Below, piece by piece: positions 5,656 to 20,579 of a stretch of 64,000 nucleotides of DNA (its first letter is position 1; every line of letters starts with the position of its first letter). Origin of the DNA: a virus; the IMG/VR virus record IMGVR_UViG_3300010376_000001, positions 1 to 64,000 of that record, one strand, 5' to 3'. The notes beneath the pieces were generated by a model. It did no database searches, had not been told where the DNA came from, and worked only from the letters and a program-made list of their open reading frames with translations. A program made the position numbers and the translations under genes.

Positions 5656-5690
5656 GTGAGCCTAATCTTTCAAAAAATGGTAAAAATTTT
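5648..5690. repeat. 43-bp direct repeat, copy B, in the convergent junction of the two arms
   Basis: aaagttaggtgagcctaatctttcaaaaaatggtaaaaatttt. It overlaps the TAG of 4525..5655 and abuts the stop of the giant ORF. Read on the minus strand, the TTAGG/CCTAA stem is followed by a CTTTTCTGCTTCTTTTTC tract. Confidence 0.8.
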
Positions 5691-8600
5691 TACTGCTCCT
5701 CATCCTCGTAGTTTTTGGCGCCCTTGCTAAATAGCCCACTCGGCATATGGTTCCCGCTCTTGCGCGCCTCGCTCAGGATCGATTTGGATGGAATGTAGGC
5801 ATGATAACGCCCAGTCATCAGGTCATTAATCATTTCGTTTGAGTAGCGCCTCTCTTTGAGGGCGCTTTTAATCGCAGTCGTTGTCATCCCTGAATCACGG
5901 GCAGCGGCGATCTTGTCGCGCAAGTTACCAAAGATAATCCGGCGCACGGATTCCATGTGTTGGTAAGCAGCACGCATATCGTTATCAGTCATGGCGTTGC
6001 GCTGGATTGGACCGGTAAAGATCCTTACTGAATTGCCCAGCTCATCCCGGGAGCTATACAAGCTGGATCGGAACCGGTCTGGGATAGAGATCTCGTGCAG
6101 ATCCTGGCCCAGTGTCTCACTCTTGAGCAGAATATTGGGATCGTACACTACTCCTCCCTTGGTAGTCGTACCCATCTGGGGCAGCTGCCGGCCAGCCCGG
6201 CCTAGTGTTCCACCACTCCATCTGGTCCAGGCATAATTGAGCATGTCTAATGCTTTACCTTCGGGATGGTTGCCATACATCCTGAGCCAGTGATCCTCCG
6301 GATTATAAACCTGGGTGCCGTACTCAGTCTGGTTCCGAGAGATATCAACCAGTGCACCTGGCATCAGTCCAAAGTTTACCATCGGATGGAATTGCTCACC
6401 CATAGCTGCCTGGATCCGGCCAGCGATGCCATCCTTGTTCGGAGTGAGCGCAGCAATTACTGACCGGGCCAGGTCGCCTTGTGGCATGACATAATTCAGG
6501 TTCATGTACTGCCGCTTACCATCCTTCATCGGCCCATAGATCCGCACATCATTCTGTTCCCATGGTGGCAGCAGCTTGCGCAGGTTATCATCCTCGCGCT
6601 GGCTCACACCAAACCAGTGCATCGCAGTCTGAGCTAGCGCATAGGCGAAGCCAGCCGATGCCATTAGTCCAGCAGCTCTACGTACTCCTTCGAATCTTTC
6701 GATTCGATTTGGACTACGCAAATAATTCAGAGCATATCCCCATTGATTGGCGTATGAACGCAGCATCTCACTTCTGAATGTCAGGAATGGTCCAATAAAG
6801 GGCTGTGCCCGTACCCTTTTTACCAATGGGCTAGTCAAACTGTAAGAGATATTGGTATCGTTAACGATCCGGGCCGCTTTGCGTTTGATCTCATCCTCAG
6901 TCAATGTCCTGACCTCACCAGTCATTGAATCTTTTCGGTTCAATCGCACATCTTCCAGGTTAGCTTCCCGGACAAACTTCTGCTTGGCATACCACTGGGC
7001 CATCTTGTTTACATCGTTACCAGCCACATGGAACTTCTGGGCTAGCTCAGCTGCCTCTTTCCACCAGGTACCTTTGGTCCGCATGCCAGGTAAGGCTGGA
7101 GCAATTCGTGCCCAGAGTTTGTTTTTAGCCGCATAATTCTCAATCCCCTCCAGATAATCCAGCGGTCCACGCTGCATATACTTGTACCCATTCTGGGTCA
7201 TGTCCCTGAGTGTGAACGGGTCAGTAGTCTTATCGAGTACACCGTAGCGCCTAGCCTCCTCGATGTTCCGCATGACTTCCCGGCTATCGCCTCGAAACAT
7301 ATCGATCACATAATTCTTAGCGGCGCGCAGAGCGCGTGCATCAGTAGGCAGCATTCCATTCTGCACCATACCAAAGAGGCCACTCCACATGTTCGCTATA
7401 CCTCGGCGCGAAGACAGCATGGTAGTCATGTACCTGGAGCTGTTCTCTAGGCTACTGATAAGTGGGATCGAAGAGGTCATGTGCTGGCTCAAGGCATCGT
7501 AGCCTCGCAGGACATCATGGATCTCGCGCGAGGTCCATTTACCAGCCAGTGCCCCCATCATGGTGGGCTTTACCTTCTGGACTACTGAACCATCCTCCTG
7601 CAATACATCTACAGGTGAGAGCTGTGGTATCTGATGGGTCCAATTTCGGGTAGCGTCCTGCCTATCCCCAAAGTATTTACCAGCCCCGGCGCGCAGGAAT
7701 TCCTGGGCTAGCTGTGCTGTCTGCAGGTACTGGTTCTGGCGCTGGATAGTATGGATCAATCGGATACCAACATCTTTTTCCTCACCCATGAGTTCCCGGA
7801 ACGCATCCGGTAATTTGGTTACCTCCTGGAGCAAACTGTCATTGAGCACAAAGGCCGGCCCAAATGATGTGCGTGCCTTATCTCTGGCCTCAGCTGTCTG
7901 CCGATACCGTGCCAGCATCTCACTCATCTTCTGTGAAACCATGCCGTCAGTGATCGAATCATTCAGACGTGCAGCCGTGAAGAGTTCAGCCCTGCGTTTA
8001 GCTTCCAGGTAATCAGATGTACCCGGTCGATACTTCCGGGCTGCCCGGTCCCCGGCCTCCTTACTCTGCACATCTATCCACCATTTTCGCATGTAGGGGA
8101 TAGCATGGTTCCATTTAGCTGGATCAGTATCCTGGGCAAAGCGTGGTTCGTGAAAGATCCTTTGAGATCGGGCGACGTACTGCCCCGGACCACCTGCTGC
8201 CTCCCCGCGCGGGAAGCGGTTACTAAAGAACTCTTTGTAAAGCTCGCTGTCTTCCTTGATAAAGCCTAGCGCGCGCAGTCGGTCACTGAAGTTGTCAATC
8301 GATGCCCGACCCTCCATCAGATGATTGTACAGGTCCGGGTGCATATCTTCAGGAGCAGTCAGGTGTTTACCTTCCAGTACTGCGTTTAATTTCTCATCCT
8401 GCCTGGCTGGTGTAGTCAGGGGATCAACTCCCATATGCTTTTTAATCAGGGTATTCAGTTTCCGATCCCAGAAACCCAGGTAATGGGAGAGAGCGGAGAC
8501 TTCATACTTCAGATGTTCCAGCTGCGCTTTGAATAATTCCTTGGGCAGGTTACCCTGTTGCAATAGCTCTCTACCCCAGCGCATGATCCGATTCTTGGGT

Positions 8601-11600
8601 GCATCTGGATCAGACTCTGGTCCTAGAATTTTGATCTTAGCCAGGCTTCGATAGTTCAGTTCCTTTAGTACATCTTGCACATCCAGGTACTGCCGTTGGG
8701 TAATAGCCTTATCCAGGTAGGCTTGTTGCATCGCTCGTGCTAAACCCTTGCCATCTCTATGATCAATTCCCGTAACTCGAGCGATATGATCCAGGATATC
8801 CTCAGGGTCAGTCTTCTTGGATAACTCTTCACTTGGTAGAACCAATCCGCGCCGGGAAGGATCTGCTACAACCTGTGGTTTATCGGGATCAGCATGCCCT
8901 TGGAAATTTCGTTCACTCTTCCAGTCAGCCAGCCATTTATTTACTGTTGCCTGTGGTACATTAGTCAGGCTGGAGTACCCTTCCATCGTAGCTTTCTTCT
9001 CCAGGAATCGTGCACCAAGCTGCGCTTCCCGCATCAGAGGAGAAAAAGTTCCCTTGGTGGTCATGCCAAGACCATCCTTTAACAGGAAATCACTGCGCAT
9101 GATACGCTGACCCTCAACCATTGTTGCCAGATTTTTTAGAGCCTCGTGCGCGCCGTAACCTTCCTTAAATCCAAGGAACTTACTTAACCAACGGAAGAAC
9201 TTACCGAAGATAGTTTGTCTTTCTCCGGTAGCAGAATCAAAACGAACTTTATTTAGGAGCTGCTGAAAATCATGGTTAGTTAGAGCCTCACTAGCAAACT
9301 CATGTAGATCTAATAAGCCATAGTATTTTCTAAAAGCAGGATCAGCTTCAATAGCATCAACAAAATGTTGTCCTCTATTTCCATAGCCACCAAGGTCGGC
9401 TATCTGTCTTAGCTTATCTGGTACATCTGGGTGCCTGATAGCAGCACGCCTGATCTCTTCCAGCTCTTGCATTGCCCTAAAGTCAGAGGGCTTAAGTAGA
9501 TCAAACCGGCCTGAAAGATAAGCAGAGATTTTGCCACAGGTAATAGAATGTACTACCTCATGCAGCATAGTTCGCTCTAGCTCTCTATCAGTAGCAAATG
9601 GGCTAAGCGTCAGTACATCATTAACAAGAGAGTATGCGCCTCTCCCCGGCTCATCAGGATCTACATGGACTAGAATACCAGGATTCTCTCCCAAGATTTT
9701 TTTAAGCCCTTTAGCCAGTGCCTTATACATTACGTTATCAGTACGCAGATCGATCCTGTCCAGCATGGCCGGCACTCCCTCATGGACGGCATACCTATCG
9801 TAAACTTTTTGAGTTATATCTATTAGGGGCGGTAGTGTAGTAGGAGGATAAAGATCACCTGGAAAGAAGGCATCATTATTAATGCGATCCATTCGATCCT
9901 GATAAGTTTGCTCATTAAGATATCCTCTCTCGTATGCTGTTTGAATTAAATTTGTAGCATACTCTTTTGTTCGAGAGCGCCACTCGTTAATATCTATCTT
10001 GCCGGACTGGTACTCTGCTATGTCTGCTTCAATCTTAGCAGGAAACTTTACTTTTAGCTTTGGTGCTTGAGATGGCGGCGTAAGTGAAGTCTTCTGAGGA
10101 TAAAGATCACTAGGCTTAAATGTATTTTCTTCTATTCGCTTTCTTCGATCCCACCATTCTTGAGGATCAATCAGTCCTTTTTGATGCATGAACTCTATTA
10201 TATCCTTGGCAAAGTCTTTTACTTTTTCTCGCCATTCCCAGATATGAAGTTTACCTGCATGATAATCTTGCTCTGCCCGTATAACATGTTCAGGAAATCC
10301 TCCTGTCATTTGTGATGGGTCTGATAATCGACGTTCACCTTCACGAGGATCCTCTCGCATCACAGCACCTGGCCGATTGTAGGCAACCTCACTAGCCTCT
10401 GGCGCAAACTTGAATGCCTGATCTCCGAACAGAGTCCGGCCCCAGTCATGCACATTATCCCAGAGCGGGTCACCTCGGTCACTTTTAACTGAGCGCAGGT
10501 AATCTCTGAAGTTGGCGCTACTGAATGCCTTCTTAATAAACTCAGTCGGATGTGATGCTGCTTGGATCAGTGGGAACCACTTGCGTTCCTGGTCATTAAT
10601 CTGGTCCCAGTCGATCTCTCCCGTTGAGCTGAGATGATTAAAGATATCGACAAACTTGTTGTCTATCGCATCCCGGATATCGGCCGGTAGCCCACGCTTA
10701 AACTGGTTGGTGAGCGCCGTAGCATGTGCGTTAACTTCATGCTCCTCTCCAGTCTTGGGATTATTCAGGATCTCTTGCGCAACTGAATGCTGCAGCTCAT
10801 TAGCAATTGCCTTGTGCCCATCTGGGTGGCGCAGTGCTGCCTCGGTTACCCAGAGATCGCCGTTATGATAAAAAGCTGCCGGTACCTCATGCTTAAGCTG
10901 CCTAACCTTTACTCCCATCAACTGATCTCGGTGCTGGGTAAGAGTGGTAGCGAATGCGCGCATCTCCGGATCATCTGAAGCACGCAGGTAGCGCGCGAGC
11001 CGGCTGGTGTCACCCTCATCCAGCACATGCGATTCGCCTACGCCGGGGGCCAGGCTGGCCATCTTACCCATGTAGAGCGGCTGACCTGTAGCGCGTGGCT
11101 CATCAGTCAATCCTTCCCGACGTGCCATGTGCTGGAGTGCCGCATTTAAAGTCTGCGGATCAGCACCGAACTTAGCTTTCAGTTTCTGGATAATCTTGTT
11201 GGCATAATCCGGGCCATGCAGAGCGTCATCAAAACGCAGTCCATAAGCTGCCGCGTCACGCGGGTTATCCAGGAAATAATGCCCGAGTTTGCCGGCTAAT
11301 TCCTGAGTCTGCTGGTGCAGTCGGTACGTAGGAGTTGCTGCCGGTGCCGCCTGGTCCATCTTGGCACGCAGATCACTAACCCGTTTCTCCAGGGTATTCA
11401 GTGTATCTTTCCAGAGCGTACCCATGCCGCCTTCCCTGACTCGCAGGGCCATCCGGCGCATGTACCTGAGACTGTCCATGAACCAGTCATGGAGTTTACC
11501 CATTAGCTTTCGATCTTCGTACTGCGTAGTCCGGCCGAAGATATCCAGTTGGGCTAGTTGCCTGGCTAACTCATAGGGTAACTGGGAAGAGACTTCTCTT

Positions 11601-14600
11601 TGCTGGTGCTCATCTAAGGTATCCATCCAGTTTACAAAGTCTCGGAAGCTATGGATATCTTCTGCTCCTGGTAGATCCGCACCCCAGTAGCTTTTGACTG
11701 CACTGGCAAAAGTCTTGTCCAATGCGCGCTCAGTCTGGAAATCTTTACGTTTGGCTGCCGCGTTCTTGGCATCCAGGAACGAGTCAATTAGCTCAGCACC
11801 CTTGTAGTTCTGGTAATCAACAAAGTTTCCGCGCGAGCCAGCACGTGCCCACTCATCCCGATACATACCCAGGTGCGCCCCGTGAATCAGCTCCTCTTCC
11901 AGCATGGATTCAGCCAGGGTGCGTACCTGACCTTCTGTAATTCCTCGGTAGTCTGCTATCCGGCGCCAGTACTGTGGCGAGTGTACATATACCAGACTCC
12001 CATTGGGTAGTGGCACAATTGCATCGGGCGTTTTTCTATCGCGAACCTCTTTGGCAATACCCAGGTGTCTGAAGCCAGGCTCAAACTTGTTCCAGGCTTG
12101 ATTAACGATATTGATTGCCTGCTCAGCTGTGGTAACAGGCTTAGTCTGGTTGGCGTAATTGCGCGAACGTCGCAACTGACTTGCGCTCATTTCGCCCTTG
12201 AGGGGCGGAACGCCACGCAGCGCATCCCGGGCAAGCTGTACTCGGCGCTCATAGCTAGGCTCCTGCTTAACGATACCCTGGACGATATCTTTTAGAGCCT
12301 TGGAAACAGCAGCTTTACTAGCCAGGTCCTCTTTACCTAGCCCAAGATGATTAGCCTGATCAGACCGGCCACGCTTCTTAACCTGGTCCCAGATCGAGTC
12401 AGCAGTCTTCTTTATTAAAGGGTCTGTGGTTCTTTGGAAACGCTCTTCATCGCCCCGAGAGATTGTGGGGAACCGGCTTCGGGCACGCTCTTCTCCTTCG
12501 GGGCTGATGACGATTCGCTCCCCGGTAGCGGTGTCTCGCTGGACTCTTCCGGCCCCTGGGGCGCCTGCACCGGCGGCTCGCTCGTCTCCTCCGCCTGGGG
12601 CGTTTGAAAGAAGTTCAATTTTTGAAGCAAGGGGGCCACCTTGTCCTTCAGACGTTGATTCTGGTAACCCCGCAATTGTGTCACGAGGTCCGCCAGCGGG
12701 AGGCTCCCCGCTAGCCACTTGGCCCTGATCAGTGGTGGTAGTAGTGGTAGGTTGAACAGTACCTGCATCTGCGCCTGTGCCTCCGGGTCCGGCAGGTCCA
12801 CTGCCTCCCGGAACTTCTTCAGTACCTGCGGGTGGAACGGTACCTCCCCCGGCGGCTGTTGCTGTTGCCTCTCCTCCCTCCGCTGCCCCTTTACCGGCTC
12901 GTCCGGATTCACGTTTTTCAAGGAATCTAAGATATTCATTGGTGATCTTATCTAAGAGTTCTTTTCGTCCATTGAACTGGTTTGGTAAAGCGGCTAGCCC
13001 TTCTGGATGTTTAGCCTTACCTGGACCCAGTATCTTATCTACAACATGCCAGAGTGCTTGCTTCTCCCTATTACTACGTAACGTTTTATTCCATTCATCG
13101 GCCACTGCCTGATGATCAACCTGGCCAATCTGTTGCCAGCGTTCAGCTTCAACTGAAAGTGGTTTTATTTGAAAGCCAGCTCTTTCCTCTTCGCTTTCAC
13201 CTCCTTCTTCGCCTTCTCCTTCTTCTTCTGATACTCGACCTCCTCTTTCTTTTTCCTCTCGCTCAATCTCAGACTCCATGAGCTGGGTACCACCACCGGT
13301 ATACTCTTCTTTCTTTTCTTTTTCCCATGGCCCTTGAAACTCTGGGCCGTAGAGTTTTTCTGCTCGTTTTCGATGATCATGGAAATCTCTTTCCAGCTGG
13401 GTAATCATCTGACCAATGCTAGGATCTCCAGTTGGCTTACCAAAATGTTCTCCTTCATCTGGATCTAGTAAGGGAGCCAGGGTATTAACTTGTCTCTGTA
13501 GATCTTCTACGTGTTTTTCTAATGCCTTATTGTCTGGGTCTTGCTTGAATAAATTTTCAGCTTTAATCAGCTTAGCTTTTAATTGCAGATCTACTTCCCT
13601 ACCCGCCTTACGCCACTTAGCAGCATGCGTTCTTATCGCACGTTCATAACGAGCAATAGCTGCCTGAGCAATTCGATCTCCACCCTGTCGTGCTGAAACT
13701 GCTGCAGTCTTTGGAACAGCTGCTTCTAGCATTTCTTTCCCCGCTGGATGCTCTAAATAGTTTTTAGTCTCATCATTATATTCTGTAGTAAGTTCAGCCG
13801 GGCTCCATACCTTTGAAAGCGGTCGCCCTGCTGGTCGCTTCTCTTTAAGTTCTTCCAATGTCTCTTGGAATTTTTCATAAGGGCCAGGCTCGCCTCGCTT
13901 AGCTTTAATTACATAATGATCGCCAACTAGATCAGAATCGAAATTATGATGCTGAAGCCAGTCATCAAGATCCTCGTTCTCTTCTACCGTTTCAGCTTTT
14001 AACTTCAGAGTTTTACCACCAGCCAGCTGATCATGTAGTCCCTGGTGATCATTATCTGAGTACATCTGGAAGAAGTTCTCCGGACTGATTGGCCCACCCA
14101 TCTTAGGCTTGCCAGCTAGAGTTCCTTCTTCCTTGGTTAGTTTATCCAGGTACTGATTAAACTTATCTCGGATCCCTTGTCGTTCAGCTTCTTTGATATA
14201 AGCAAAGGTTGCCTGATTACCTACCCTCTGCAAAGCCAGCTGATGCATCAGCTCATCCGCTGCTCGATCCTGTCCAGGATCACCGCTCTTTTTAATTTCA
14301 GTTTTAAAGTTAGTAGCTAAATCTTTCTTCTCTTCACCGGTAGCATCTCCCAGATAATCCTTAGTCTTCTGCTGGAGCGCACTCCATGGATCAGAAGGTG
14401 GTGGCGTACCAGCGCCCCCTTCAGGTGGAGTACCTGGAGGAGGTGGTGTACCACCTTCACCTGTTGGAGGAGTACCTTCTTTAGTTGGAGGAACACCTTC
14501 TTTAGTTGGAGGTTCACCCTCCTTAGTTGGAGGAATACCTTCTGTAGTTGGAGGAGGCGGTGCCTTGGTTTGATCTGCCGCATCCTGCTTAGCCTGTCGT

Positions 14601-16381
14601 TCTACCTCCCTGGCTTCACGTTCCTCCGGGCTAAGCTTGGCGTACTCAGTTTCAAGTGCAGTCGGTCCTTCCTTGCTTAATGGACCACGGGTAGCAGCGT
14701 GCCGGCGCAAATCGAATATGGTTGGCTCAGCCTGGGTCATGCCGTTAGGCCGATCTGCAGTCTGTTTTACCATGTCAGACAGCCTGTCCATGGTTCCGCT
14801 GGGGTCTTCTGCTACCGTGCTACGCAGATCAACATGCTGATCTCGGGTAATGTGGCCGTTAGCCAGCATCTCATCGATAATCTTCTTTTCGTTATCCTTC
14901 CGATAAGGACGAGATACAGGTACAGTTGTCTCAGTAGCCGCGTCATCAGCTTGCTTGGAAAGCTCAGTAGCTAACTGCGGACTCTTTCCCGCATTAGCTG
15001 TGACCGCCGCAGCACCCAGTGCCTCAGAAGAATCCTGCTGAGCTAGCTTGGCTCGTATTCCATTCCGATATTTTTCCGGTTGCGTCTGAATGAACTCTTC
15101 CTGTACATCCTTGGCATTAGCGTTGGGATCAACTTTGGTCCGTGCCTCTGCCGCACGTCGGGCCGCACCAGCCATGTCGTTTACCTTGGCCTGATCCGCA
15201 CGCCAGCCTTTAAGGAACGAATATGGCCGGGCTACTGCGCCCAGTGCACCGAAACCAAGACCCATCCAAGCGCCCTGCTTTAATGTCTCACCGGTAACGC
15301 CGGTCTTATCTACCCCACTGTACTGATCAGCCAAGGCATCCAGAGCATTTACCCCTGTTCCGATTGCCACCTGGCCAGCAAACTCGCCTGTGCCCTTGAG
15401 CAATACATTCTTGGTAAATTGGTTCCAGACATTCTGCGCCGTATCCAGCTTCATCCCATGCCCAACCAGGCGCCCCACCATCATATTACTGGCAACCATG
15501 AAGGGGACACCAAAGAGCGACATGGATGCGTCATTGGTCGCCATTCGATCCCCATCTTCCTGGGATATAATCTCGCCATGCTTACGCCGATCATCGATCT
15601 TGGCCAGAGCTGCTTCGCGCTTGCCTTGAAACATATCGATACCCTGCGCGGCCATGTCCGCCGTCCAGCCGACAGCGGTACCTAATCCACCAGCAGCTTC
15701 AGCACCGATTAAAGGAGTAGCCGCGCCACCTGTAACAGCTTCAGCACCAACTGCACCGGCAATGAATGGGAGTACACCACCAATAGAGCTGGAAAAAGTA
15801 TGCCAGAATGGATGTTCTTGGGACCAGACTGCATCAGGTGGTGCGTAATTTTCGCTAGTCCATTTCTCCAGCTTACGAAATGGTTTCTCCAGTGTCGTCT
15901 CTGGTGTCTGAGGTATTCCCAGCTTCTGTTCACCCCAGCGGATAGCCGGCCCGACAGTCTGAACTCCTTCACGCAAGACTCGGGCAGTAGTCGTTGCTGC
16001 GGTATTGAGTACATCTCTAAGCGCATTCTCTGGAATACTGTACCGTTCCAGGCTGGCCGTCTTCTCCCGATCCATCTGCTCATCGAGATGTTTCTGGGCT
16101 AGCGACCGTTCCTCATCGCTCTGAGCTAACTGATCAATCTCTTGGCGACGCTGATTGTACCAGTTGGTCAGCATGTTAGTGCGACCCTGGTCATCAGCCT
16201 TCTGGAAAGTATCAGTGGTCTTGATCTGATCCCAGTCCGGGATCACCGTACCCAGGGGCGGCTTATCCTGTTGTTCTGAAGTTGGCGAGGTACCACCAGC
16301 AGCCGCAACAGAAGCGTTAATGATGGATTGATCCAGGGGAGATTTCCCAGGCATCGGTGTTCCTGTGACTGGATCAGCCAT
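5690..16381 (-). CDS. giant (3,563 aa) putative ejected or internal virion polyvalent protein
   Basis: Uninterrupted 10.7-kb ORF, last gene of the late arm, start overlapping the upstream stop by 8 nt. Gly/Ala-rich hydrophobic N-terminal segments, several low-complexity linkers and one HExxH site (MLHEVVHSITCG, nt 9548-9562). Most of the protein is unassignable by eye. Confidence 0.8.
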   Translation of the reverse strand: MADPVTGTPMPGKSPLDQSIINASVAAAGGTSPTSEQQDKPPLGTVIPDWDQIKTTDTFQKADDQGRTNMLTNWYNQRRQEIDQLAQSDEERSLAQKHLDEQMDREKTASLERYSIPENALRDVLNTAATTTARVLREGVQTVGPAIRWGEQKLGIPQTPETTLEKPFRKLEKWTSENYAPPDAVWSQEHPFWHTFSSSIGGVLPFIAGAVGAEAVTGGAATPLIGAEAAGGLGTAVGWTADMAAQGIDMFQGKREAALAKIDDRRKHGEIISQEDGDRMATNDASMSLFGVPFMVASNMMVGRLVGHGMKLDTAQNVWNQFTKNVLLKGTGEFAGQVAIGTGVNALDALADQYSGVDKTGVTGETLKQGAWMGLGFGALGAVARPYSFLKGWRADQAKVNDMAGAARRAAEARTKVDPNANAKDVQEEFIQTQPEKYRNGIRAKLAQQDSSEALGAAAVTANAGKSPQLATELSKQADDAATETTVPVSRPYRKDNEKKIIDEMLANGHITRDQHVDLRSTVAEDPSGTMDRLSDMVKQTADRPNGMTQAEPTIFDLRRHAATRGPLSKEGPTALETEYAKLSPEEREAREVERQAKQDAADQTKAPPPPTTEGIPPTKEGEPPTKEGVPPTKEGTPPTGEGGTPPPPGTPPEGGAGTPPPSDPWSALQQKTKDYLGDATGEEKKDLATNFKTEIKKSGDPGQDRAADELMHQLALQRVGNQATFAYIKEAERQGIRDKFNQYLDKLTKEEGTLAGKPKMGGPISPENFFQMYSDNDHQGLHDQLAGGKTLKLKAETVEENEDLDDWLQHHNFDSDLVGDHYVIKAKRGEPGPYEKFQETLEELKEKRPAGRPLSKVWSPAELTTEYNDETKNYLEHPAGKEMLEAAVPKTAAVSARQGGDRIAQAAIARYERAIRTHAAKWRKAGREVDLQLKAKLIKAENLFKQDPDNKALEKHVEDLQRQVNTLAPLLDPDEGEHFGKPTGDPSIGQMITQLERDFHDHRKRAEKLYGPEFQGPWEKEKKEEYTGGGTQLMESEIEREEKERGGRVSEEEGEGEEGGESEEERAGFQIKPLSVEAERWQQIGQVDHQAVADEWNKTLRSNREKQALWHVVDKILGPGKAKHPEGLAALPNQFNGRKELLDKITNEYLRFLEKRESGRAGKGAAEGGEATATAAGGGTVPPAGTEEVPGGSGPAGPGGTGADAGTVQPTTTTTTDQGQVASGEPPAGGPRDTIAGLPESTSEGQGGPLASKIELLSNAPGGGDERAAGAGAPGAGRVQRDTATGERIVISPEGEERARSRFPTISRGDEERFQRTTDPLIKKTADSIWDQVKKRGRSDQANHLGLGKEDLASKAAVSKALKDIVQGIVKQEPSYERRVQLARDALRGVPPLKGEMSASQLRRSRNYANQTKPVTTAEQAINIVNQAWNKFEPGFRHLGIAKEVRDRKTPDAIVPLPNGSLVYVHSPQYWRRIADYRGITEGQVRTLAESMLEEELIHGAHLGMYRDEWARAGSRGNFVDYQNYKGAELIDSFLDAKNAAAKRKDFQTERALDKTFASAVKSYWGADLPGAEDIHSFRDFVNWMDTLDEHQQREVSSQLPYELARQLAQLDIFGRTTQYEDRKLMGKLHDWFMDSLRYMRRMALRVREGGMGTLWKDTLNTLEKRVSDLRAKMDQAAPAATPTYRLHQQTQELAGKLGHYFLDNPRDAAAYGLRFDDALHGPDYANKIIQKLKAKFGADPQTLNAALQHMARREGLTDEPRATGQPLYMGKMASLAPGVGESHVLDEGDTSRLARYLRASDDPEMRAFATTLTQHRDQLMGVKVRQLKHEVPAAFYHNGDLWVTEAALRHPDGHKAIANELQHSVAQEILNNPKTGEEHEVNAHATALTNQFKRGLPADIRDAIDNKFVDIFNHLSSTGEIDWDQINDQERKWFPLIQAASHPTEFIKKAFSSANFRDYLRSVKSDRGDPLWDNVHDWGRTLFGDQAFKFAPEASEVAYNRPGAVMREDPREGERRLSDPSQMTGGFPEHVIRAEQDYHAGKLHIWEWREKVKDFAKDIIEFMHQKGLIDPQEWWDRRKRIEENTFKPSDLYPQKTSLTPPSQAPKLKVKFPAKIEADIAEYQSGKIDINEWRSRTKEYATNLIQTAYERGYLNEQTYQDRMDRINNDAFFPGDLYPPTTLPPLIDITQKVYDRYAVHEGVPAMLDRIDLRTDNVMYKALAKGLKKILGENPGILVHVDPDEPGRGAYSLVNDVLTLSPFATDRELERTMLHEVVHSITCGKISAYLSGRFDLLKPSDFRAMQELEEIRRAAIRHPDVPDKLRQIADLGGYGNRGQHFVDAIEADPAFRKYYGLLDLHEFASEALTNHDFQQLLNKVRFDSATGERQTIFGKFFRWLSKFLGFKEGYGAHEALKNLATMVEGQRIMRSDFLLKDGLGMTTKGTFSPLMREAQLGARFLEKKATMEGYSSLTNVPQATVNKWLADWKSERNFQGHADPDKPQVVADPSRRGLVLPSEELSKKTDPEDILDHIARVTGIDHRDGKGLARAMQQAYLDKAITQRQYLDVQDVLKELNYRSLAKIKILGPESDPDAPKNRIMRWGRELLQQGNLPKELFKAQLEHLKYEVSALSHYLGFWDRKLNTLIKKHMGVDPLTTPARQDEKLNAVLEGKHLTAPEDMHPDLYNHLMEGRASIDNFSDRLRALGFIKEDSELYKEFFSNRFPRGEAAGGPGQYVARSQRIFHEPRFAQDTDPAKWNHAIPYMRKWWIDVQSKEAGDRAARKYRPGTSDYLEAKRRAELFTAARLNDSITDGMVSQKMSEMLARYRQTAEARDKARTSFGPAFVLNDSLLQEVTKLPDAFRELMGEEKDVGIRLIHTIQRQNQYLQTAQLAQEFLRAGAGKYFGDRQDATRNWTHQIPQLSPVDVLQEDGSVVQKVKPTMMGALAGKWTSREIHDVLRGYDALSQHMTSSIPLISSLENSSRYMTTMLSSRRGIANMWSGLFGMVQNGMLPTDARALRAAKNYVIDMFRGDSREVMRNIEEARRYGVLDKTTDPFTLRDMTQNGYKYMQRGPLDYLEGIENYAAKNKLWARIAPALPGMRTKGTWWKEAAELAQKFHVAGNDVNKMAQWYAKQKFVREANLEDVRLNRKDSMTGEVRTLTEDEIKRKAARIVNDTNISYSLTSPLVKRVRAQPFIGPFLTFRSEMLRSYANQWGYALNYLRSPNRIERFEGVRRAAGLMASAGFAYALAQTAMHWFGVSQREDDNLRKLLPPWEQNDVRIYGPMKDGKRQYMNLNYVMPQGDLARSVIAALTPNKDGIAGRIQAAMGEQFHPMVNFGLMPGALVDISRNQTEYGTQVYNPEDHWLRMYGNHPEGKALDMLNYAWTRWSGGTLGRAGRQLPQMGTTTKGGVVYDPNILLKSETLGQDLHEISIPDRFRSSLYSSRDELGNSVRIFTGPIQRNAMTDNDMRAAYQHMESVRRIIFGNLRDKIAAARDSGMTTTAIKSALKERRYSNEMINDLMTGRYHAYIPSKSILSEARKSGNHMPSGLFSKGAKNYEDEEQ
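14460..14556 (-). repeat. in-frame 18-bp tandem repeat encoding (P-P-T-K/T-E-G)n within the giant ORF
   Basis: Units such as accttctttagttggagg are repeated about five times (PPTTEG IPPTKEG EPPTKEG VPPTKEG TPPTGEG). Boundaries are approximate. Confidence 0.75.
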
Positions 16382-17975
16382 TTCTTTGCTCCGTATCGGT
16401 TTCGAATCCCTGCTCAGTCTTCATTCCAGGAGTGGTCAGTAAGGCAGACTGGATCTGGTGCGCCTCGGCACGCTGTGTCAGGCGATCATGCATCAGGTCC
16501 AGCAGCTTGGGGAATTCTTTTGGATTAAACTTGCTGGAAATATTCTTCTCTCCTGCTGCCAACAGCTCATCATAGCGATCTAATAAGCTCTTGCCCGATT
16601 CTTCACCTACTTCAGCCGGGGCTAGCTCTGCTTCTTTTCTAGTTGGCAGCTTACCTACTTCAGCCGGGGCCAACTCTGATCCACTTGGAGTACCACCCCA
16701 TTCAAAGTGACCTAGGTCATGAAATCGTTCACCACCATAGATATGCCATCTTTCTTCCAGAGTTTGTAATTCTCCTGGGTGTTCATCAATCCACTTCTTA
16801 AAGTCTGGGCTAACTTTATCTCTACCGGTCTGGTTTACATCAATAGCACCACCAAAGGCATGCTCGCTTATTCCCTTAGCCCCTACCTTCTCTCGGTAAT
16901 TCCAGCCGCCGGCTGATGTCACTGGTGCACCGGCTTTTTGTAGATCATTTAGGAATCCCTGGAAATAAGGAGCTGCTTCCTGGTGCACTCGCCAGGTCTG
17001 ATCCCCAACCTTAACGTCAGTTAGACGCGGGTCATCATTGGTCTTGATTGGCTCATCTCCGCGCTTACGGAAGAAATCAGCTACTCCAGTTGGCCCAGCT
17101 TCTTCTTCCTCACGCGATTTTGCTTCAGTTGCCCGGGGCGCCCAGCCCTTCTGGATAGTGCTGGGATGAAAACCTTTAATCTCGATAGGGTTACCGTCTT
17201 GCCCAACCAACTGAACGCTAACCTGGTCTTTGCCAGTTAAACCCAGCTTCTTAGTAGCGCCATAGGTTAGGTCAACCAGGTTCCCCGTCCAGTTAGCCGG
17301 TCCGGCATCAACCAAAGGCATTGTCTCAGTCTGGCCCTTGGCATTAGTAACAACGACCTTGTAATTGCCGTCCTTAATCTGCCGGATAAGACCGGCATCA
17401 GTCGTGTAATCACCAATAGATTGCTTGATTACATCAACTGGCAGTGATGCGCCAACCAGCTTAGGATCGCGCGTGTTGTATCCGAAAGCACCCCAGCCTT
17501 TATCACCCGGATCCAGATATTTTGTATCAACTGTACCATCCGAATTGACTACCGTATTAGGCTGCAAGCCAAACGTGGTAGCTGTGCCGCTTAACTTGTA
17601 AAGATTGCTAGGAGTTGCACTAGCTGCATCAGACTCTGGGGTTGGAGCCGGTGTCGGTGTGTATTGATGGATCGGCTCATTATCGAACTTCTGCCTGGGT
17701 TCCTCAGCTCGGCCAGGGTCGCCCACATTAGAGTAAAGCGTCTGGTAAAACTTGGTCAGGTCATTTAGACCGGCGCCACCCGTTGGATTATAGGATAAAT
17801 AATCTGGCTTGTTGGGAGTATAGATCCCCTGGCCTTGCCCCTGTCCCTCACCACCACTAGGCGTAATGGTAGCCGGTGCTGTTAATTGTGCTGGTTGTTG
17901 CGATAGATCCCAGCCGCCACCTTGGTTTGAAGTAGCTTGAGTAGGATCAACGGCAAGTGACAGTTCACCATCCAC
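16374..17975 (-). CDS. virion-associated peptidoglycan hydrolase: DPBB (RlpA/3D-like) domain plus M15-type peptidase domain
   Basis: M15 signature ..GISEHAFGGAIDVN.. with distal ..HDLGHFEW.. Upstream is ..GTATTFG..VVVTNAKGQTETMPLVDAGPANWTGNLVDLTYGATKKLGL.., typical of double-psi beta-barrel lytic domains. GTG start directly after the upstream TAA. Confidence 0.65.
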   Translation of the reverse strand: MDGELSLAVDPTQATSNQGGGWDLSQQPAQLTAPATITPSGGEGQGQGQGIYTPNKPDYLSYNPTGGAGLNDLTKFYQTLYSNVGDPGRAEEPRQKFDNEPIHQYTPTPAPTPESDAASATPSNLYKLSGTATTFGLQPNTVVNSDGTVDTKYLDPGDKGWGAFGYNTRDPKLVGASLPVDVIKQSIGDYTTDAGLIRQIKDGNYKVVVTNAKGQTETMPLVDAGPANWTGNLVDLTYGATKKLGLTGKDQVSVQLVGQDGNPIEIKGFHPSTIQKGWAPRATEAKSREEEEAGPTGVADFFRKRGDEPIKTNDDPRLTDVKVGDQTWRVHQEAAPYFQGFLNDLQKAGAPVTSAGGWNYREKVGAKGISEHAFGGAIDVNQTGRDKVSPDFKKWIDEHPGELQTLEERWHIYGGERFHDLGHFEWGGTPSGSELAPAEVGKLPTRKEAELAPAEVGEESGKSLLDRYDELLAAGEKNISSKFNPKEFPKLLDLMHDRLTQRAEAHQIQSALLTTPGMKTEQGFETDTEQRNG

Positions 17976-19694
17976 TTATTGGCCAAAGTAAGATTTTTTC
18001 TTGCCGCCACCAAAAAATGATCGTTGATCTTCTTCCAGTTGTGGCTCAGCAAAAACCTCTGGTTCAAATCCAGTAGGTCCAGCTGGAGTAGGTATTGGTG
18101 TTTCAAGTGCTGGTGCTTGAAAATAGGATGTAGCACGTTGTGCTGGTCCAGGAGCCTGTGGATTAAGATTCTGATAGAGCCAGGACCATGGAGTCTGACC
18201 TGACATCCAAGGTTCTTTTTCCTCGTATACATTTCCTCTAAAATAACCGGCTGGTGTATCTGGTGAAGCAGCCGGTGTCGCTGTTGGTGTCGCTGTTGCC
18301 GCTGGCAAAGATGGTTTAGCAGCAGCTGTACCTGCCTTGTGAGAAACAATTACGTCCCCAGGTAATGCTCCGCTTCCACCCTTCTCACCCGTCTTATTTA
18401 ATCCGGCAGCAGATTTTTCAAGCGTGTCTTTGGATGCTCCAGCCTGGCCTTGCCCAGACATTTGTATCTCATGCTGAGTTTCCTTATTGATCTGGTCAAT
18501 CATGTCAGGACCATGCCCACCTTGATCTACCCACTTCTCAACTCGTGATTTAGCATCACGTTGATGAGCCTCCTTTTCTGCCGGACTCCATGCTGGATTG
18601 GCAACTAAGTCACCTTCATCATCAGTAAATTTGGCATGGCTATCGATGGTCTTCTGATCCCAGTTTAGGGCATGCTTTCCGGTATCTTTAATAGAGGCTT
18701 TGGTTAATTCTTCAGCATGCCTGGCGCCAGCCATGGCAGTCTCTTCATCTTTACCCTGGGCTTTGAGCGTTTTATAAGTTTCAACTGAAAGTGCATCCAT
18801 GCCGCGCCGTGCATTCTCATTTTCATTCATCCGGCGACCATACTCATAGGCGCTATTGAATCGTTGCTGGGCAGTCTGATTCTCACCAGCACTATTGTAC
18901 CGATCTAAGAACGCATCTCGACCTTGAGCAGTCCAGGTTGTCATCTCACTCTGGCGATCCAGTTCCTGGCCAAGTGCCATCTGCTTGCCAGTGATCATAG
19001 ATAAGCGCTGCTCACCATAAGCTGTCTTCATATGCGCGTGCGCATCCTGGATAACTTTCTGTAGCTCTGGATTACTATCGATCTTGTAATGATCTACTGG
19101 ACCAAATTTGGCTAAAGCTTGATTCAGCTTATCCAGTTCCTGGTCATCATTAGTTCGATCATCTAGCTCTCGTTTCTTAAGATTTGTTTCCTGTTCTCGA
19201 TAGGCTTTCTGCGATTCCATATCAGCCCGTTGGACATCACGCAGCTGGGCTTCACTTTTTTCTCTATCTCTTTCAAACTGGAGTTGATCCTGTGCCCGAG
19301 TTTCGTCTACTTTATTGTGCCGCTCAGCTTCTCGTTCCCTATCTCCTTCTAAGCCTAATAGACCGGTCTGATAGGTTTCATCTGCTCGATTATGCCGAGC
19401 AACTTCATCTTGTGCTCTACCGCGTAAAGCCAGGTCCAGTACGTCATGCTGTTCCTTAATCAGATTGGCTCGCTTGGTTTCATTCAGCTCAGATCCTCTC
19501 AGCCCAAGCTCTTGCAATTTATTAGCTAGCTCCTGACTCTGGTAATAGGTACCCCAGGAGAACTCAGCCGGAGCTAACGCGGCCTTGATCGCCTCCCCGT
19601 ACATGGCGACATAGTTCGGGGCATGCTCTGGCTTGGCAATCTGGGCGGCACTACCGCCACCAGTTGGTTCAATCAGTTGAGGGCCTTCTGCCAT
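17976..19694 (-). CDS. charged coiled-coil protein, putative internal or ejection protein
   Basis: 572 aa with a long Glu/Arg/Lys/Gln-rich helical region and a Pro/Ala-rich C-terminus. The call is by position, between a Gly-rich protein and the peptidoglycan hydrolase. Confidence 0.45.
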   Translation of the reverse strand: MAEGPQLIEPTGGGSAAQIAKPEHAPNYVAMYGEAIKAALAPAEFSWGTYYQSQELANKLQELGLRGSELNETKRANLIKEQHDVLDLALRGRAQDEVARHNRADETYQTGLLGLEGDREREAERHNKVDETRAQDQLQFERDREKSEAQLRDVQRADMESQKAYREQETNLKKRELDDRTNDDQELDKLNQALAKFGPVDHYKIDSNPELQKVIQDAHAHMKTAYGEQRLSMITGKQMALGQELDRQSEMTTWTAQGRDAFLDRYNSAGENQTAQQRFNSAYEYGRRMNENENARRGMDALSVETYKTLKAQGKDEETAMAGARHAEELTKASIKDTGKHALNWDQKTIDSHAKFTDDEGDLVANPAWSPAEKEAHQRDAKSRVEKWVDQGGHGPDMIDQINKETQHEIQMSGQGQAGASKDTLEKSAAGLNKTGEKGGSGALPGDVIVSHKAGTAAAKPSLPAATATPTATPAASPDTPAGYFRGNVYEEKEPWMSGQTPWSWLYQNLNPQAPGPAQRATSYFQAPALETPIPTPAGPTGFEPEVFAEPQLEEDQRSFFGGGKKKSYFGQ

Positions 19695-19700
19695 AAACTT

Positions 19701-20579
19701 TTAGAATCCGCTTAACGCCGAAACTAGATCAGCATTTGAAAGAGTATCCTCTCCACCTAAAAATCCCCAGCCGCTACTTGAGCCGCCCCCACCACCGCCG
19801 CCACCGCCGCTAAAAAAATTGCCTATGGAGCCAGCCAGTCCGGTTGATAATCCACTTGGGTTACTGGCACTGCCAAACAAGCCACTGAAGATACCACCCA
19901 GGCTACTCTGTTGCTTGGCTTGCTGGGCCATTTGCATAGCATTAGCCTGCTGGGCCATCCCGGCATTGATTATCTGTTGCTGGTTTTGTACCTCGTTATT
20001 GTAATAATTCTTTTGATCATCTCTGGCCAGGATCTGAGCTGGGCTAAATAGAAGCTGTCCTGGATTAATGAAGCCGGGTATCATACTCTTGGCAGCGTTT
20101 AGTCCGGCTCCATAAAGACCAACTCCTTGCTGCTGCAGGTTCATACTGGTCTGCCCAAAATCGCGTGCCGTCAGATTCGATGCCATGCCAGTGCCACCAT
20201 ATCCGCCAGTCAATGCCTGTTGTGCTGTAGCACGCTGGATCTGGGATTGAACATCCTGTGGAATCTGACCTTGCATGTAACTCTGAGCCAGGTTGGAAAT
20301 CTGACCAAGCTGCTTAGTTGCCCCAGGGTAGAGCTGGTTAAGCATCTGGGTATACTGCTGCATAGCAGTCTGGTTAATCTGATTAGTAAAACCAGCTACC
20401 CCTGGAAATGATCCTGCCTCATTGATGTAACCCCAAAGCCCGGCGTTTACATCCGGCAGATCAATTGTCTTTAATTTGACGGATGGTGTGCTACCGCCAC
20501 CACCACCTAGTATACCGCTACCCAGTACACCGCCGGCTATTGAACCGACTGCGCCGATTGCTGCACCTAAGACTCCCAT
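19701..20579 (-). CDS. Gly/Gln-rich putative internal virion or membrane-active protein
   Basis: N-terminal GVLGAAIGAVGSIAGGVLGSGILGGGGG, a Gln/Asn/Ala-rich core and a G9 tract near the C-terminus. Confidence 0.45.
   Translation of the reverse strand: MGVLGAAIGAVGSIAGGVLGSGILGGGGGSTPSVKLKTIDLPDVNAGLWGYINEAGSFPGVAGFTNQINQTAMQQYTQMLNQLYPGATKQLGQISNLAQSYMQGQIPQDVQSQIQRATAQQALTGGYGGTGMASNLTARDFGQTSMNLQQQGVGLYGAGLNAAKSMIPGFINPGQLLFSPAQILARDDQKNYYNNEVQNQQQIINAGMAQQANAMQMAQQAKQQSSLGGIFSGLFGSASNPSGLSTGLAGSIGNFFSGGGGGGGGGSSSGWGFLGGEDTLSNADLVSALSGF

Follow-up and report, generated by a model that had tools for sequence, protein, structure and literature searches.

A 3,563-residue protein that closes a phage late block is probably an ejection protein of N4-type layout with other domains in the polymerase slot

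The minus-strand late (virion) block in the window, by which we mean the whole 64,000-nucleotide stretch of IMG/VR record IMGVR_UViG_3300010376_000001 analysed here, has as its final gene one unbroken open reading frame that starts with ATG and encodes 3,563 amino acids (5690..16381; this and all features located below lie on the minus strand). The protein, hereafter the giant, is thus as uninterrupted as a preliminary description of a single 10.7-kb frame had stated. There is an 8-nt overlap (ATGGCTGA) between its ATG and the stop codon of the 533-aa ORF upstream, and the two genes are candidates for translational coupling. At its other end the gene faces a convergent plus-strand gene whose end is at 5655. 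This neighbour is AcrVA2-like, which places a counter-defence context beside the giant. An identical protein is present on an ENA contig of 78,631 bp (the genome of this phage measures about 78.5 kb), and the giant can be aligned end to end with five independent metagenomic relatives of 3,335-3,649 aa (27-33% identity), one of which has the same gene neighbourhood. Because of the identical protein on the contig, the five full-length relatives and the shared neighbourhood, we conclude that the ORF is real and is no assembly fusion, a possibility that the preliminary description had raised and of which we found no sign.

Three cysteine-free proteins are encoded upstream. The 533-aa protein (16374..17975) matches M15 peptidoglycan peptidases weakly and below the Pfam threshold (E 5e-4; 21 bits, with the cut-off at 25), and a relative's counterpart has Amidase_2 instead of M15; it is a candidate wall-degrading ejection protein. 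Beyond it lie a highly charged 572-aa protein without a family match (17976..19694), a candidate for a periplasmic-tunnel ejection protein, and a 292-aa protein rich in Gly, Gln and Asn with a hydrophobic Gly-rich N-terminus (19701..20579), which may be a membrane-pore ejection protein. Both are kept in the relative with the same neighbourhood, at 33% and 45% identity, respectively. The earlier description of these three genes held for the Gly/Gln-rich and the charged protein, the coiled coil of the latter being read by eye off the translation; the M15 assignment stayed sub-threshold, and the DPBB domain proposed for the 533-aa protein was detected by no tool. Homology of the three proteins to N4 gp51/gp52 or T7 gp14/gp15 was not detectable.

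Cysteine is avoided by the giant and by the three proteins encoded upstream of it, which together contain one such residue in 4,960 aa compared with 0.97% in the other late genes, each of which encodes at least one. Against an expectation of 34.5 cysteines the giant has 1 (P about 4e-14), and against one of 13.5 the three upstream proteins have none (P about 1e-6). Cysteine is likewise absent from all 11 fetched N4-like virion RNA polymerases (vRNAPs) and from six of seven fetched gp16-like proteins, the seventh having one.

The giant opens with a family-conserved N-terminal domain (aa 1-490; 14912..16381) common to P0009-P0014 and P0016. Kyte-Doolittle scanning located the hydrophobic Gly/Ala-rich segments that had been described here, at aa 195-221 (15719..15799), where G201 and P205 are invariant across the family, and at aa 285-307 (15461..15529). 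In HHalign, aa 196-380 match N4 gp50 230-434 weakly (Prob 58%, E 1e-4; reversed-sequence decoy E 0.48), and in this weak match the hydrophobic helices line up with the N4 membrane helices, which have been placed at 224-278 (PMC13434306). The domain is a candidate for membrane insertion. Between it and the next recognisable domain, a variable middle (aa 491-1399; 12185..14911) is composed of low-complexity linkers between short helical stretches, and only a small fraction of it aligns among relatives. All the linkers noticed earlier could be located: Tandem Repeats Finder places five copies of the PPTKEG heptad repeat at 14452-14555 (period 21 nt) and an E/G-rich stretch at 13188-13228, and poly-Thr and Gly/Ala/Pro runs occupy about aa 1170-1290. 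For the helical stretches, no relatives were detectable outside the giant's family, and none was found there for aa 690-1050.

Next comes D1 (aa 1400-1685, 286 aa; 11327..12184), a domain with an EExxH motif. It is missing from the closest relatives and found in at least 12 other giant proteins, with E98, H101, W112, F121, Y166, E205, R208 and W234 invariant (A6 numbering). Its AlphaFold2 model (pLDDT 75) has the topology helix, three strands, helices, and the domain has no match in PDB or Pfam. D2 (aa 1672-2022; 10316..11368) is a degenerate, zincin-like paralogue of the D3 domain described below (HHalign Prob 99.9%, E 3e-37); its motif reads NELQH in the giant and HEIQH in three relatives, and the D2 equivalent of relative P0016 clears the Pfam SprT-like cut-off. 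The internal tandem duplication that follows, also seen in the preliminary description, comprises two copies of a small helical unit (aa 2019-2098 and 2100-2182; 9836..10327) that are 32-36% identical by self-BLAST (E 6e-15). The unit has only a weak SHOCT-like/DUF1707 match (Pfam DUF1707 E 0.013), and the duplication is absent from the relatives, where the aligned fraction is 0.12-0.23.

D3 (aa 2186-2450; 9032..9826) is an ejection-protein-type zincin-like metallopeptidase domain. It contains the one HExxH site that had been noted, HEVVH (aa 2274-2278; 9548-9562), which is the sole such site in the giant. Among 20 diverse D3 members, H2274, E2275, H2278, Y2354 and E2361 are invariant, and E2361 is a candidate third ligand. 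The D3 profile matches PDB entries 9sfn_G (3e-13), PhiM1 gp48 (8vb2_A, 1.5e-6) and N4 vRNAP (1e-5 to 2.5e-4); 9sfn_G and phiKMV gp37 are of equal length and share an LHEAVHAAT motif. HHalign pairs D3 with N4 vRNAP C1 (2204-2372; 97.8%, E 1e-12) and with phiKMV gp37 420-557, of the gp16-like family (97.7%, E 1.7e-12). These profile comparisons make D3 a homologue of N4 vRNAP C1 and of the zincin-like domain in T7 gp16-type ejection proteins. All characterised proteins with such a domain are ejected. This domain family is not known to have peptidase activity, and the N4 and T7 proteins are not known to be processed in virions.

The C-terminal module (aa 2451-3563, about 1,100 aa; 5693..9031) is all-alpha and is the best-conserved part of the giant. 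The region of roughly 1,300 aa had been described as devoid of motifs, which is correct for Pfam; the region can nevertheless be assigned to a family, since a core of about 900 aa (aa ~2660-3560) occurs at the C-terminus of diverse phage giant or polyvalent proteins. Searched with Foldseek against BFVD, the module, modelled by AlphaFold2 as helical (pLDDT 70.5), matches C-terminal chunks of 'large polyvalent proteins' (E 8e-26 to 1e-5) and Cellulophaga phi19:3 gp129 (E 1.5e-21; tblastn 21% identity, E 4e-13). It also matches PHROG 22602, 'virion structural protein' (E 4e-11), and, among predicted viral structures in Foldseek, an Anabaena phage A-4L 'tail protein' (E 3e-4), internal virion protein D of Roseobacter phage CRP-5 (E 2e-3) and the C-terminal chunk of one schitovirus vRNAP (E 6e-3). 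The likeness to N4 C2 is weak in HHalign as well (2973-3215 against 3201-3439; Prob 26%, E 7e-4; reversed decoy E 0.47). In profile comparison the module did not resemble the C-terminal region of gp16, and a search of PDB folds, in a library that runs to April 2026 and from which the N4 C-terminal domain may be missing, gave nothing significant.

From N to C, then, the giant consists of an N-terminal domain with two hydrophobic helices, low-complexity linkers, D1, D2, two repeats, D3 and the C module. The closest parallel in layout is N4 gp50, the 3,500-aa member of the schitovirus vRNAPs (3,000-3,800 aa; PDB 9pnq, 11gp; PMC13434306). The two are similar in size, and three collinear matches (N-terminal domain, C1 and C module) fall at nearly equal coordinates, the zincin-like C1 of N4 also being followed by a large helical domain. 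Schitovirus vRNAPs likewise have a long low-complexity linker and avoid cysteine. The genes are sited alike: gp50 is the last late gene, after the other ejection proteins, and converges on opposite-strand genes as the giant, which follows a wall hydrolase gene, converges on a plus-strand block; in ZC03 a peptidoglycan hydrolase gene lies immediately upstream of the vRNAP.

In contrast to N4 vRNAP, the giant has no detectable T7-like polymerase domain. A polymerase-domain HMM from 11 schitoviruses, run against the giant, 73 other retrieved proteins and the six-frame window, gave best E-values of 0.012-1.5 at less than 6 bits; HHalign of the polymerase domain against the giant's family gave Prob 0.2%; and DxDxD, HD[S/A/C] motifs and T7-type motif B in context are absent from the giant. 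The domain was not detected in the giant, its relatives or the ~78.5-kb genome, in the rest of which PHROG and BLAST searches showed no schitovirus hallmark genes. The slot of about 1,100 aa holds D1, the zincin paralogue and the two 80-aa repeats instead, which leaves no ordered stretch of ~800-1,100 aa unassigned.

T7 gp16-type proteins such as phiKMV gp37 and PhiM1 gp48 resemble the giant in their D3-homologous domain, in being the largest of a run of internal-virion genes with a wall hydrolase adjoining, and in being cysteine-free (the giant has one). The giant is about 2.7 times longer, has no lytic transglycosylase domain in its chain and shows no detectable profile similarity to them outside the zincin domain. 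The vRNAP has itself been termed a 'gp16-like ejection protein' (bioRxiv 10.64898/2026.05.18.726046). Cellulophaga phi19:3 gp129 (Pachyviridae, 1,871 aa, annotated 'virion structural protein'), which has homologues in phi18:3 and phi13:2, carries the homologous C module, and its gene, preceded by other virion structural genes, is the final annotated one in the circular record. It is about half the giant's size, and no similarity was found to the giant's N-terminal 2,190 aa.

D3 homology, the C module, gene position and cysteine avoidance support the earlier proposal of an ejected giant following T7 gp14-16 logic. We put at roughly two in three the probability that the giant corresponds to T7 gp16 and N4 gp50 as the largest of this phage's internal virion (ejection) proteins; most likely it is packaged in the virion and ejected into the host ahead of the DNA.

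The proposal had also foreseen several effector domains, and here the analysis departs from it: catalytic-type modules were limited to three zincin-related or zincin-like domains, of which just one has an intact active site, and neither an ADP-ribosyltransferase nor a nuclease, methylase, helicase, kinase or polymerase was detected in the giant. This bears on the reading, which we consider unlikely, that the giant is a true polyvalent effector carrier whose C module is only a packaging and delivery handle, with D1, D2 and aa 690-1290 as several as yet unrecognised anti-defence enzymes freed by the D3 peptidase. Phage-type polyvalent proteins (Iyer, Burroughs, Anand, de Souza and Aravind 2017, PMC5512222), for which zincin-mediated processing was proposed, share with the giant a zincin-like peptidase hub, a giant multidomain chain among virion genes and the same C module; examples are P0005, an ART-PolyVal protein that ends in this module and lies on a crAss-like contig, and WPJ21803 of Pseudoalteromonas phage vB_Pun_Y3. 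The module likewise closes BFVD entries that bear the names Zeta toxin, RelA/SpoT and helicase. D1, with its invariant E, H, E and R residues, turns up again in other giants and is swapped in when the giant is compared with its closest relatives, and the AcrVA2-like neighbour would suit such a role. However, no second, biochemically different catalytic domain type is recognisable by Pfam, PHROGs, PDB profiles or Foldseek, the D2 active-site motif is decaying within the family, and aa 690-1050 lack relatives outside it. This reading and the ejectosome reading overlap and are not mutually exclusive.

It is improbable that the giant stays in the head, packaged as an internal protein and not ejected (an inner-body, DNA-spooling or scaffold-like core with no envelope-channel role). 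Some C-module relatives are annotated just 'virion structural', large pre-ejectosome proteins of cyanophage A4 bind and organise packaged DNA (PMC12002296), and the PDB fold search returned nothing specific; against this stand the cysteine avoidance common to the upstream wall hydrolase and all known ejected homologues, the alignment of the N-terminal helices with N4 membrane helices, and the ejection of every characterised carrier of this zincin domain. Very improbable is a highly divergent vRNAP with a catalytic domain beyond sequence recognition: size, gene position and flanking domains resemble N4 gp50, and N4-type polymerase domains are notorious for divergence, yet the HMM, HHalign and motif checks were all negative and the slot is taken. 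The matches to a vRNAP, a case that the preliminary description had considered, cover only the non-polymerase flanks and not most of the length. A tape measure, some other ordinary tail protein or a fusion of several genes by misassembly or frameshift is scarcely credible despite the great length, the helical content and a GTA_TIM domain (which we take to be of siphovirus type) in one tail gene, given that no tape-measure or tail family matches, that the gene follows the fibre genes at the operon end and does not lie between chaperones and distal tail genes, that its homologues are internal or ejection proteins, and that a 3,335-3,649-aa frame recurs in six independent assemblies, with the same neighbours in two.

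For the giant as an ejection protein, homologues suggest every step of a possible mechanism. In N4, the N-terminal domain inserts into the membrane, and a low-complexity linker and a beads-on-a-string model have been described (PMC13434306). The giant would be made late, coupled in translation to the upstream wall hydrolase, and a few copies would be packed inside the capsid. On infection, the three cysteine-free upstream proteins would open the envelope as pore former, periplasmic tunnel and peptidoglycan hydrolase, and the giant, in the manner of 'beads on a string', would pass through the narrow tail, a passage eased by the linkers and the lack of disulfides. Its N-terminal helices would then enter the inner membrane and complete a DNA conduit, while the remainder refolds at the cytoplasmic side, tethered by the linkers, where the intact D3 zincin site may act as a peptidase whose substrate is either the giant itself or a host target. 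Since neither the giant nor the genome was found to contain a polymerase, the phage would rely on host RNA polymerase for DNA entry and early transcription, as T7 does. The giant would thus present the N4-type layout in a new phage lineage, with its polymerase slot occupied by other domains.

The open reading frame at 5690..16381 (minus strand) is single and unbroken, as the preliminary description had it; it starts with ATG, encodes a protein of 3,563 amino acids (the giant protein) and has the same G+C content as its surroundings. An 8-nt overlap between its ATG and the stop codon of the 533-aa ORF upstream suggests that the two genes may be translationally coupled. The giant gene is the final one of a long minus-strand block that holds tail-collar and collagen-like fibre genes and an endolysin gene, and the plus-strand gene convergent with it ends 34 nt away. 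This 376-aa gene (4525-5655) encodes an AcrVA2-like domain (PF26125), and a 433-aa AcrVA2-like gene sits at the equivalent convergent position on the contig of a relative (L017, 20351-21652).

So long an ORF might have been an assembly fusion of several genes. It is no such artefact: an identical protein is encoded on a 78,631-bp ENA metagenome contig (ena:ERZ27264385:k141_1175078), and an exhaustive HMMER search recovered five other full-length proteins (3,335-3,649 aa, 27-33% identity) whose alignments cover the whole length of the giant protein, one of them from a 76-kb contig where the genes on either side are the same. The window runs across the joined ends of the 78,631-bp contig, offset by 141 nt, the length of the assembler's k-mer; this makes the genome circular or terminally redundant, at about 78.5 kb, an N4-like size. 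Direct searches returned little. The gene matched no phage by Megablast, nor did aa 1-2193 by tblastn, and an IMG/VR pattern scan with the C-terminal 1,074 aa found no relative; phmmer of the whole protein against the PDB gave nothing, and Pfam gave sub-threshold noise only.

Elsewhere in the late block, three minus-strand ORFs (46489-47802, 48095-50626 and 51438-53252; 437, 843 and 604 aa) have sizes and positions that allow capsid, portal and terminase proteins, and none has a significant Pfam or PHROG match. Among phages, BLAST matched the 604-aa ORF to one protein alone, a hypothetical one from Escherichia phage Bas95 (30% identity, E = 8e-5). An 804-aa tail protein (31089-33503, minus strand) carries a GTA TIM-barrel-like domain (PF13547, E = 3e-13). 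This domain is characteristic of long-tailed phages and of gene transfer agents, and it therefore sits uneasily with a short-tailed morphology for this phage. The gene for a 179-aa protein with weak sulfotransferase-family matches (20567-21106, minus strand) separates the fibre genes from the ejection genes and occupies the same place in the relative (46% identity), and a 458-aa collagen-repeat, tail-fibre-like gene (59413-60789, plus strand) lies between the DNA polymerase and helicase genes, apart from the late block.

Mapping against 74 retrieved proteins set the region boundaries of the giant protein. An N-terminal domain (aa 1-490) common to the closest relatives is followed by linkers and short helical stretches (aa 491-1399) that are poorly conserved and have no relatives outside the family; aa 690-1050 found no match in an index of 5.8 billion proteins. 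Next come D1 (aa 1400-1685), which is missing in the closest relatives and present in at least 12 other giant proteins, D2 (aa 1672-2022), which the closest relatives share, a tandem repeat (aa 2019-2182) missing in relatives, and D3 (aa 2186-2450), which more than 50 giant proteins (1,000-5,600 aa) contain. A helical C-terminal module, the C module (aa 2451-3563), completes the chain, its final 400 aa being the best conserved (44-57% identity). The features listed in the preliminary description were all recovered: two hydrophobic Gly/Ala-rich segments (aa 195-221 and 285-307), a PPTKEG heptad repeat of five copies with a 21-nt period (14452-14555), low-complexity stretches (one E/G-rich, plus poly-Thr and G/A/P runs), exactly one HExxH site (aa 2274) and a tandem duplication (aa 2019-2098 against 2100-2182, E = 6e-15), the unit of which has only a weak SHOCT-like match (E = 0.013). 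That description had also proposed comparing homologues for swapped segments. Judged by presence and absence across relatives, D1, the repeats and the linkers are swapped, and the N-terminal domain, D2, D3 and the C module form a constant chassis.

The clearest homology lies in D3. Its motif, HEVVH (aa 2274-2278), has H, E and H invariant in six full-length relatives and 20 diverse members of the domain family; across the 20 diverse sequences the invariant positions are H2274, E2275, H2278, Y2354 and E2361. The HExxH site is thus followed downstream by YGLxDLxEFxSE, which contains E2361, a putative third metal ligand. Against the PDB, the D3 profile matched a 1,337-aa 'internal virion protein' (9sfn_G, E = 3e-13), the tetrameric ejection protein gp48 of phage PhiM1 (8vb2_A, E = 1.5e-6) and the N4 virion RNA polymerase (vRNAP) at residues about 2216-2320 (E = 1e-5 to 2.5e-4). 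The first of these is equal in length to phiKMV gp37 and shares with it the motif LHEAVHAAT; gp48 has been placed in one class with T7 gp16, named 'the T7 tetrameric ejection protein' (PMC11440229). In profile-profile comparisons (HHalign) with 11 schitovirus polymerases and seven gp16-like proteins, D3 aligned to residues 2204-2372 of the N4 polymerase, gp50 (Prob 97.8%, E = 1.2e-12), and to phiKMV gp37 420-557 (Prob 97.7%, E = 1.7e-12), and phiKMV gp37 itself matches a schitovirus polymerase by tblastn (E = 3e-6). The matching region of N4 is the domain described as C1 (2124-2375), with a conserved HExxH (PMC13434306), a region earlier placed among the zincin-like peptidases and treated as a hub of the polyvalent-protein network (Iyer et al. 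2017, PMC5512222). By sequence, then, D3 is a predicted zincin-like metallopeptidase domain of ejection proteins, of the N4 C1 or gp16 type. Homology of the giant protein to the gp16-like family is confined to this domain and does not run along the ~1,300-aa gp16 body.

D2 is a paralogue of D3 (Prob 99.9%, E = 3e-37 by HHalign), and its motif is decaying: three relatives have HEIQH, two have QELQH and HTLQH, and the giant protein has NELQH. In one relative (P0016) the D2 equivalent exceeds the Pfam SprT-like cut-off. That HExxH...E is strictly conserved in D3 while the D2 motif decays argues that D3 is probably catalytically active, with the giant protein itself or a host protein as candidate substrates. 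N4 gp50 has a second, weaker match to the D3 profile at 2456-2578 (Prob 83%, E = 9e-6), inside its helical domain C2, suggesting that N4 may carry a degenerate second zincin-like repeat there, mirroring the D2/D3 pair.

Eight positions of D1 (E, H, W, F, Y, E, R and W) are invariant, and its EExxH motif reads HEIIH in one family member. In its model (pLDDT 75, pTM 0.67), a helix and three strands lead into long helices, the first of which bears the motif. We considered D1 as a third zincin, which would rest on the [E/H]ExxH motif and a topology recalling zincins. D1 found no match in the PDB or Pfam, nor its model anything significant in the PDB by Foldseek, and HHalign to D2 and D3 stayed below Prob 4%; for these reasons we assign it to no family.

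Beyond C1, two weaker matches link the giant protein to N4 gp50 (3,500 aa). Giant aa 196-380 gave a weak profile match to N4 230-434 (Prob 58%, E = 1e-4), and aa 2973-3215 one to N4 3201-3439 in C2 (Prob 26%, E = 7e-4). Both matches to the schitovirus family are collinear, at nearly equal residue numbers, and reversed target alignments used as a control reached E values of only 0.4-0.5 at best (C2 decoy 0.47). The N-terminal match spans N4 helices 224-278, which are predicted to be membrane-spanning; the isolated N4 N-terminal domain inserts into nanodiscs (PMC13434306). N4 gp50 also has a 100-aa low-complexity linker and has been modelled as 'beads on a string' (PMC13434306). Gene order agrees as well. 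In N4, gp52, gp51 and gp50 end the late operon, convergent with the replication genes; in the schitovirus ZC03 a peptidoglycan hydrolase gene directly precedes the polymerase gene; and, like schitovirus vRNAPs, the giant protein is encoded by the last late-operon gene, after the other candidate ejection proteins.

What the giant protein lacks is the polymerase. An HMM of the polymerase domain (N4 998-2103, 11 sequences) found nothing in the giant protein, the 73 other retrieved proteins or the six-frame translated window, HHalign of the domain against the giant protein's family gave Prob 0.2%, and the polymerase catalytic motifs are absent from the giant protein. Its polymerase slot is occupied by D1, D2 and the repeats. 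Inspection of the 14.6 kb of genome outside the window likewise revealed no RNA polymerase; this part holds small early genes, a GH10-like gene of 471 aa in the early region (locus L028, 8560-9975) and a Prim-Pol-like gene of 854 aa that runs on the plus strand from about 63418 to beyond 64000 (locus L027, 11755-14319). The latter, with a weak Prim-Pol match at its N-terminus (E = 8e-4), was considered as an RNA polymerase and rejected, being Prim-Pol-like and not RNA-type. A match to a virion RNA polymerase, which the preliminary description had named as refuting its reading if it covered most of the length, is seen for C1, and weakly for the N-terminal region and C2, but not for the polymerase domain.

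Pfam is silent on the C module, and PHROGs give a single match, family 22602 'virion structural protein' (aa 3160-3363, E = 4e-11). Its core of ~900 aa forms the C-terminus of otherwise differing metagenomic proteins (P0002-P0007, P0016 and P0033). One of them, P0005, combines it with an ART-PolyVal domain and is encoded downstream of the muzzle protein, where its gene closes the structural block of a crAss-like contig. By tblastn, the module recurs at the C-terminus of the 1,871-aa gp129 of phi19:3 and of the matching phi18:3 and phi13:2 gene products, all annotated as structural, and at that of a 1,027-aa protein of Pseudoalteromonas phage vB_Pun_Y3 located after a 3,421-aa giant gene. The gp129 gene is the last annotated before the end of the circular phi19:3 record (taxonomy line Pachyviridae), behind other virion structural genes. 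For these Cellulophaga phages, the structural annotations reportedly derive from the virion proteomics of Holmfeldt et al. 2013.

AlphaFold2 modelled aa 2650-3563 as all-helical (pLDDT 70.5, pTM 0.54). Foldseek of this model against the PDB gave nothing significant (best E = 0.11) with a library that extends to 2026-04-08 and may lack N4 C-terminal-domain structures. Among predicted viral structures (BFVD), the model matched terminal chunks of many phage proteins named 'large polyvalent protein associated domain-containing' (E = 8e-26 to 1e-5), some targets of this type being called Zeta toxin, RelA/SpoT or helicase, as well as phi19:3 gp129 (E = 1.5e-21), a 'tail protein' of Anabaena phage A-4L (E = 3e-4), internal virion protein D of Roseobacter phage CRP-5 (E = 2e-3) and the third chunk of a schitovirus (Mukerjeevirus) giant protein (E = 6e-3). 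Neither the C module (Prob <2%) nor N4 C2 showed profile similarity to the gp16-like family, and the idea that D3 and the C module together make up the whole gp16 body was dropped.

An independent mark is the avoidance of cysteine. The giant protein has one cysteine where 34.5 are expected (P about 4e-14), and its five full-length relatives have none or one each. The three proteins encoded directly upstream on the minus strand (533 aa, 16374-17975; 572 aa, 17976-19694; 292 aa, 19701-20579) have none against 13.5 expected (P about 1e-6), so that the four genes from 5690 to 20579 encode one cysteine in 4,960 aa. The other 19 late ORFs (20567-53252) have 95 in 9,808 aa (0.97%), each at least one. 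All 11 schitovirus polymerases lack cysteine, as do six of the seven gp16-like proteins, the seventh having one. The four consecutive genes that had been picked out as ejection-type are exactly those so marked in the window. We infer that cysteine avoidance may mark proteins that cross the oxidising periplasm unfolded, and it may be a cheap predictor of ejected proteins.

Homology says less about the upstream neighbours. The 572-aa and 533-aa proteins found nothing useful in the PDB, and the late-block ORFs, these three included, had no BLAST similarity to the N4-like, Pachyviridae, crAss-like and Autographiviridae loci that we fetched. A DPBB domain ascribed to the 533-aa wall-hydrolase protein could not be confirmed. 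Its N-terminal half is kept in the relative (L017 8206-10008, 40% identity) and its catalytic domain is swapped, with a weak M15_4 match in the window and Amidase_2 in the relative.

Set beside the observed anatomy, D3 homology, C-module family, conserved synteny, lack of a detectable polymerase and cysteine avoidance, the best explanation is a four-gene ejection set, in a new phage lineage of ~78.5 kb, to which the giant protein belongs as the gp16/vRNAP-class member. By homology, gene position and cysteine avoidance, we put the probability that it is packaged, ejected and crosses the envelope at roughly 65%. By analogy with N4, T7, PhiM1 and phiKMV-like phages, and with less confidence in each detail, the protein would be packaged in the head and threaded through the tail as loosely linked domains; its N-terminal helices would insert into the inner membrane, the remainder would refold at the cytoplasmic side, and DNA entry and early transcription would depend on host RNA polymerase.

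The preliminary description had expected several effector domains. A true multi-effector polyvalent protein, for which D1 and aa 491-1399 leave room, overlaps with our reading. The gene lies with late and packaging genes, the protein has the zincin hub, and its C module is shared with P0005 and many BFVD entries of the polyvalent type. Polyvalence as defined by Iyer et al. 2017 means that a single chain holds at least two domains of disparate biochemical activity, however, and only zincin-type domains were recognised, with no second activity detectable; we consider this reading unlikely. Less probable by some distance is a packaged core protein that is not ejected, which would keep the head packaging and dispense with the envelope crossing. 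A polymerase hidden in a protein of N4 size and layout is hardly credible, the HMM, HHalign and motif checks all being negative. A tape measure, tail protein or assembly fusion is just as implausible: no tape-measure family matched, and the gene sits behind the fibre genes at the operon end, whereas a tape measure gene would be expected between those for the tail chaperones and the distal tail.

Giant ejected proteins with a zincin hub had been catalogued by 2017 (Iyer et al. 2017, PMC5512222), and N4 gp50 has been described structurally as a gp16-like ejection protein (bioRxiv 10.64898/2026.05.18.726046). New here are a family of proteins that equal N4 gp50 in size and layout yet lack a polymerase, and the phage lineage in which it occurs, where the genes proposed for portal, capsid and terminase fall into no Pfam or PHROG family. 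Also new is a ~900-aa helical module that ends diverse phage polyvalent proteins and can be linked, weakly, to N4 C2. Tentatively, and against the odds as we judge them, the giant family could be a sister of the schitovirus vRNAP, or an ancestral-type form of it, without the polymerase. If so, a membrane-associated N-terminal domain, linker, zincin C1 and helical C2 would be an old and widespread giant ejection-protein chassis into which a T7-like polymerase was inserted in N4-like phages, the cargo in other lineages being D1, extra zincin copies, ADP-ribosyltransferases and toxins, and phage polyvalent proteins would have the C module in common as their handle for delivery or packaging.

The giant ejected enzyme of textbooks is that of N4-type phages, in which a chain of 3,500 residues has to be packed, passed through the tail and anchored at the membrane. 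A protein of N4 size and layout without the polymerase would show the flanking parts (N-terminal membrane domain, zincin and helical C module) to be a self-standing ejection chassis, would supply an evolutionary route for polymerase acquisition and would offer a cleaner system for the role of the strictly conserved HExxH domain. The C module and the near-absence of cysteine are two simple markers that could flag ejected proteins in those phage genomes whose virion genes mostly escape current family libraries; in this window, cysteine avoidance alone picks out exactly the four consecutive candidate ejection genes.
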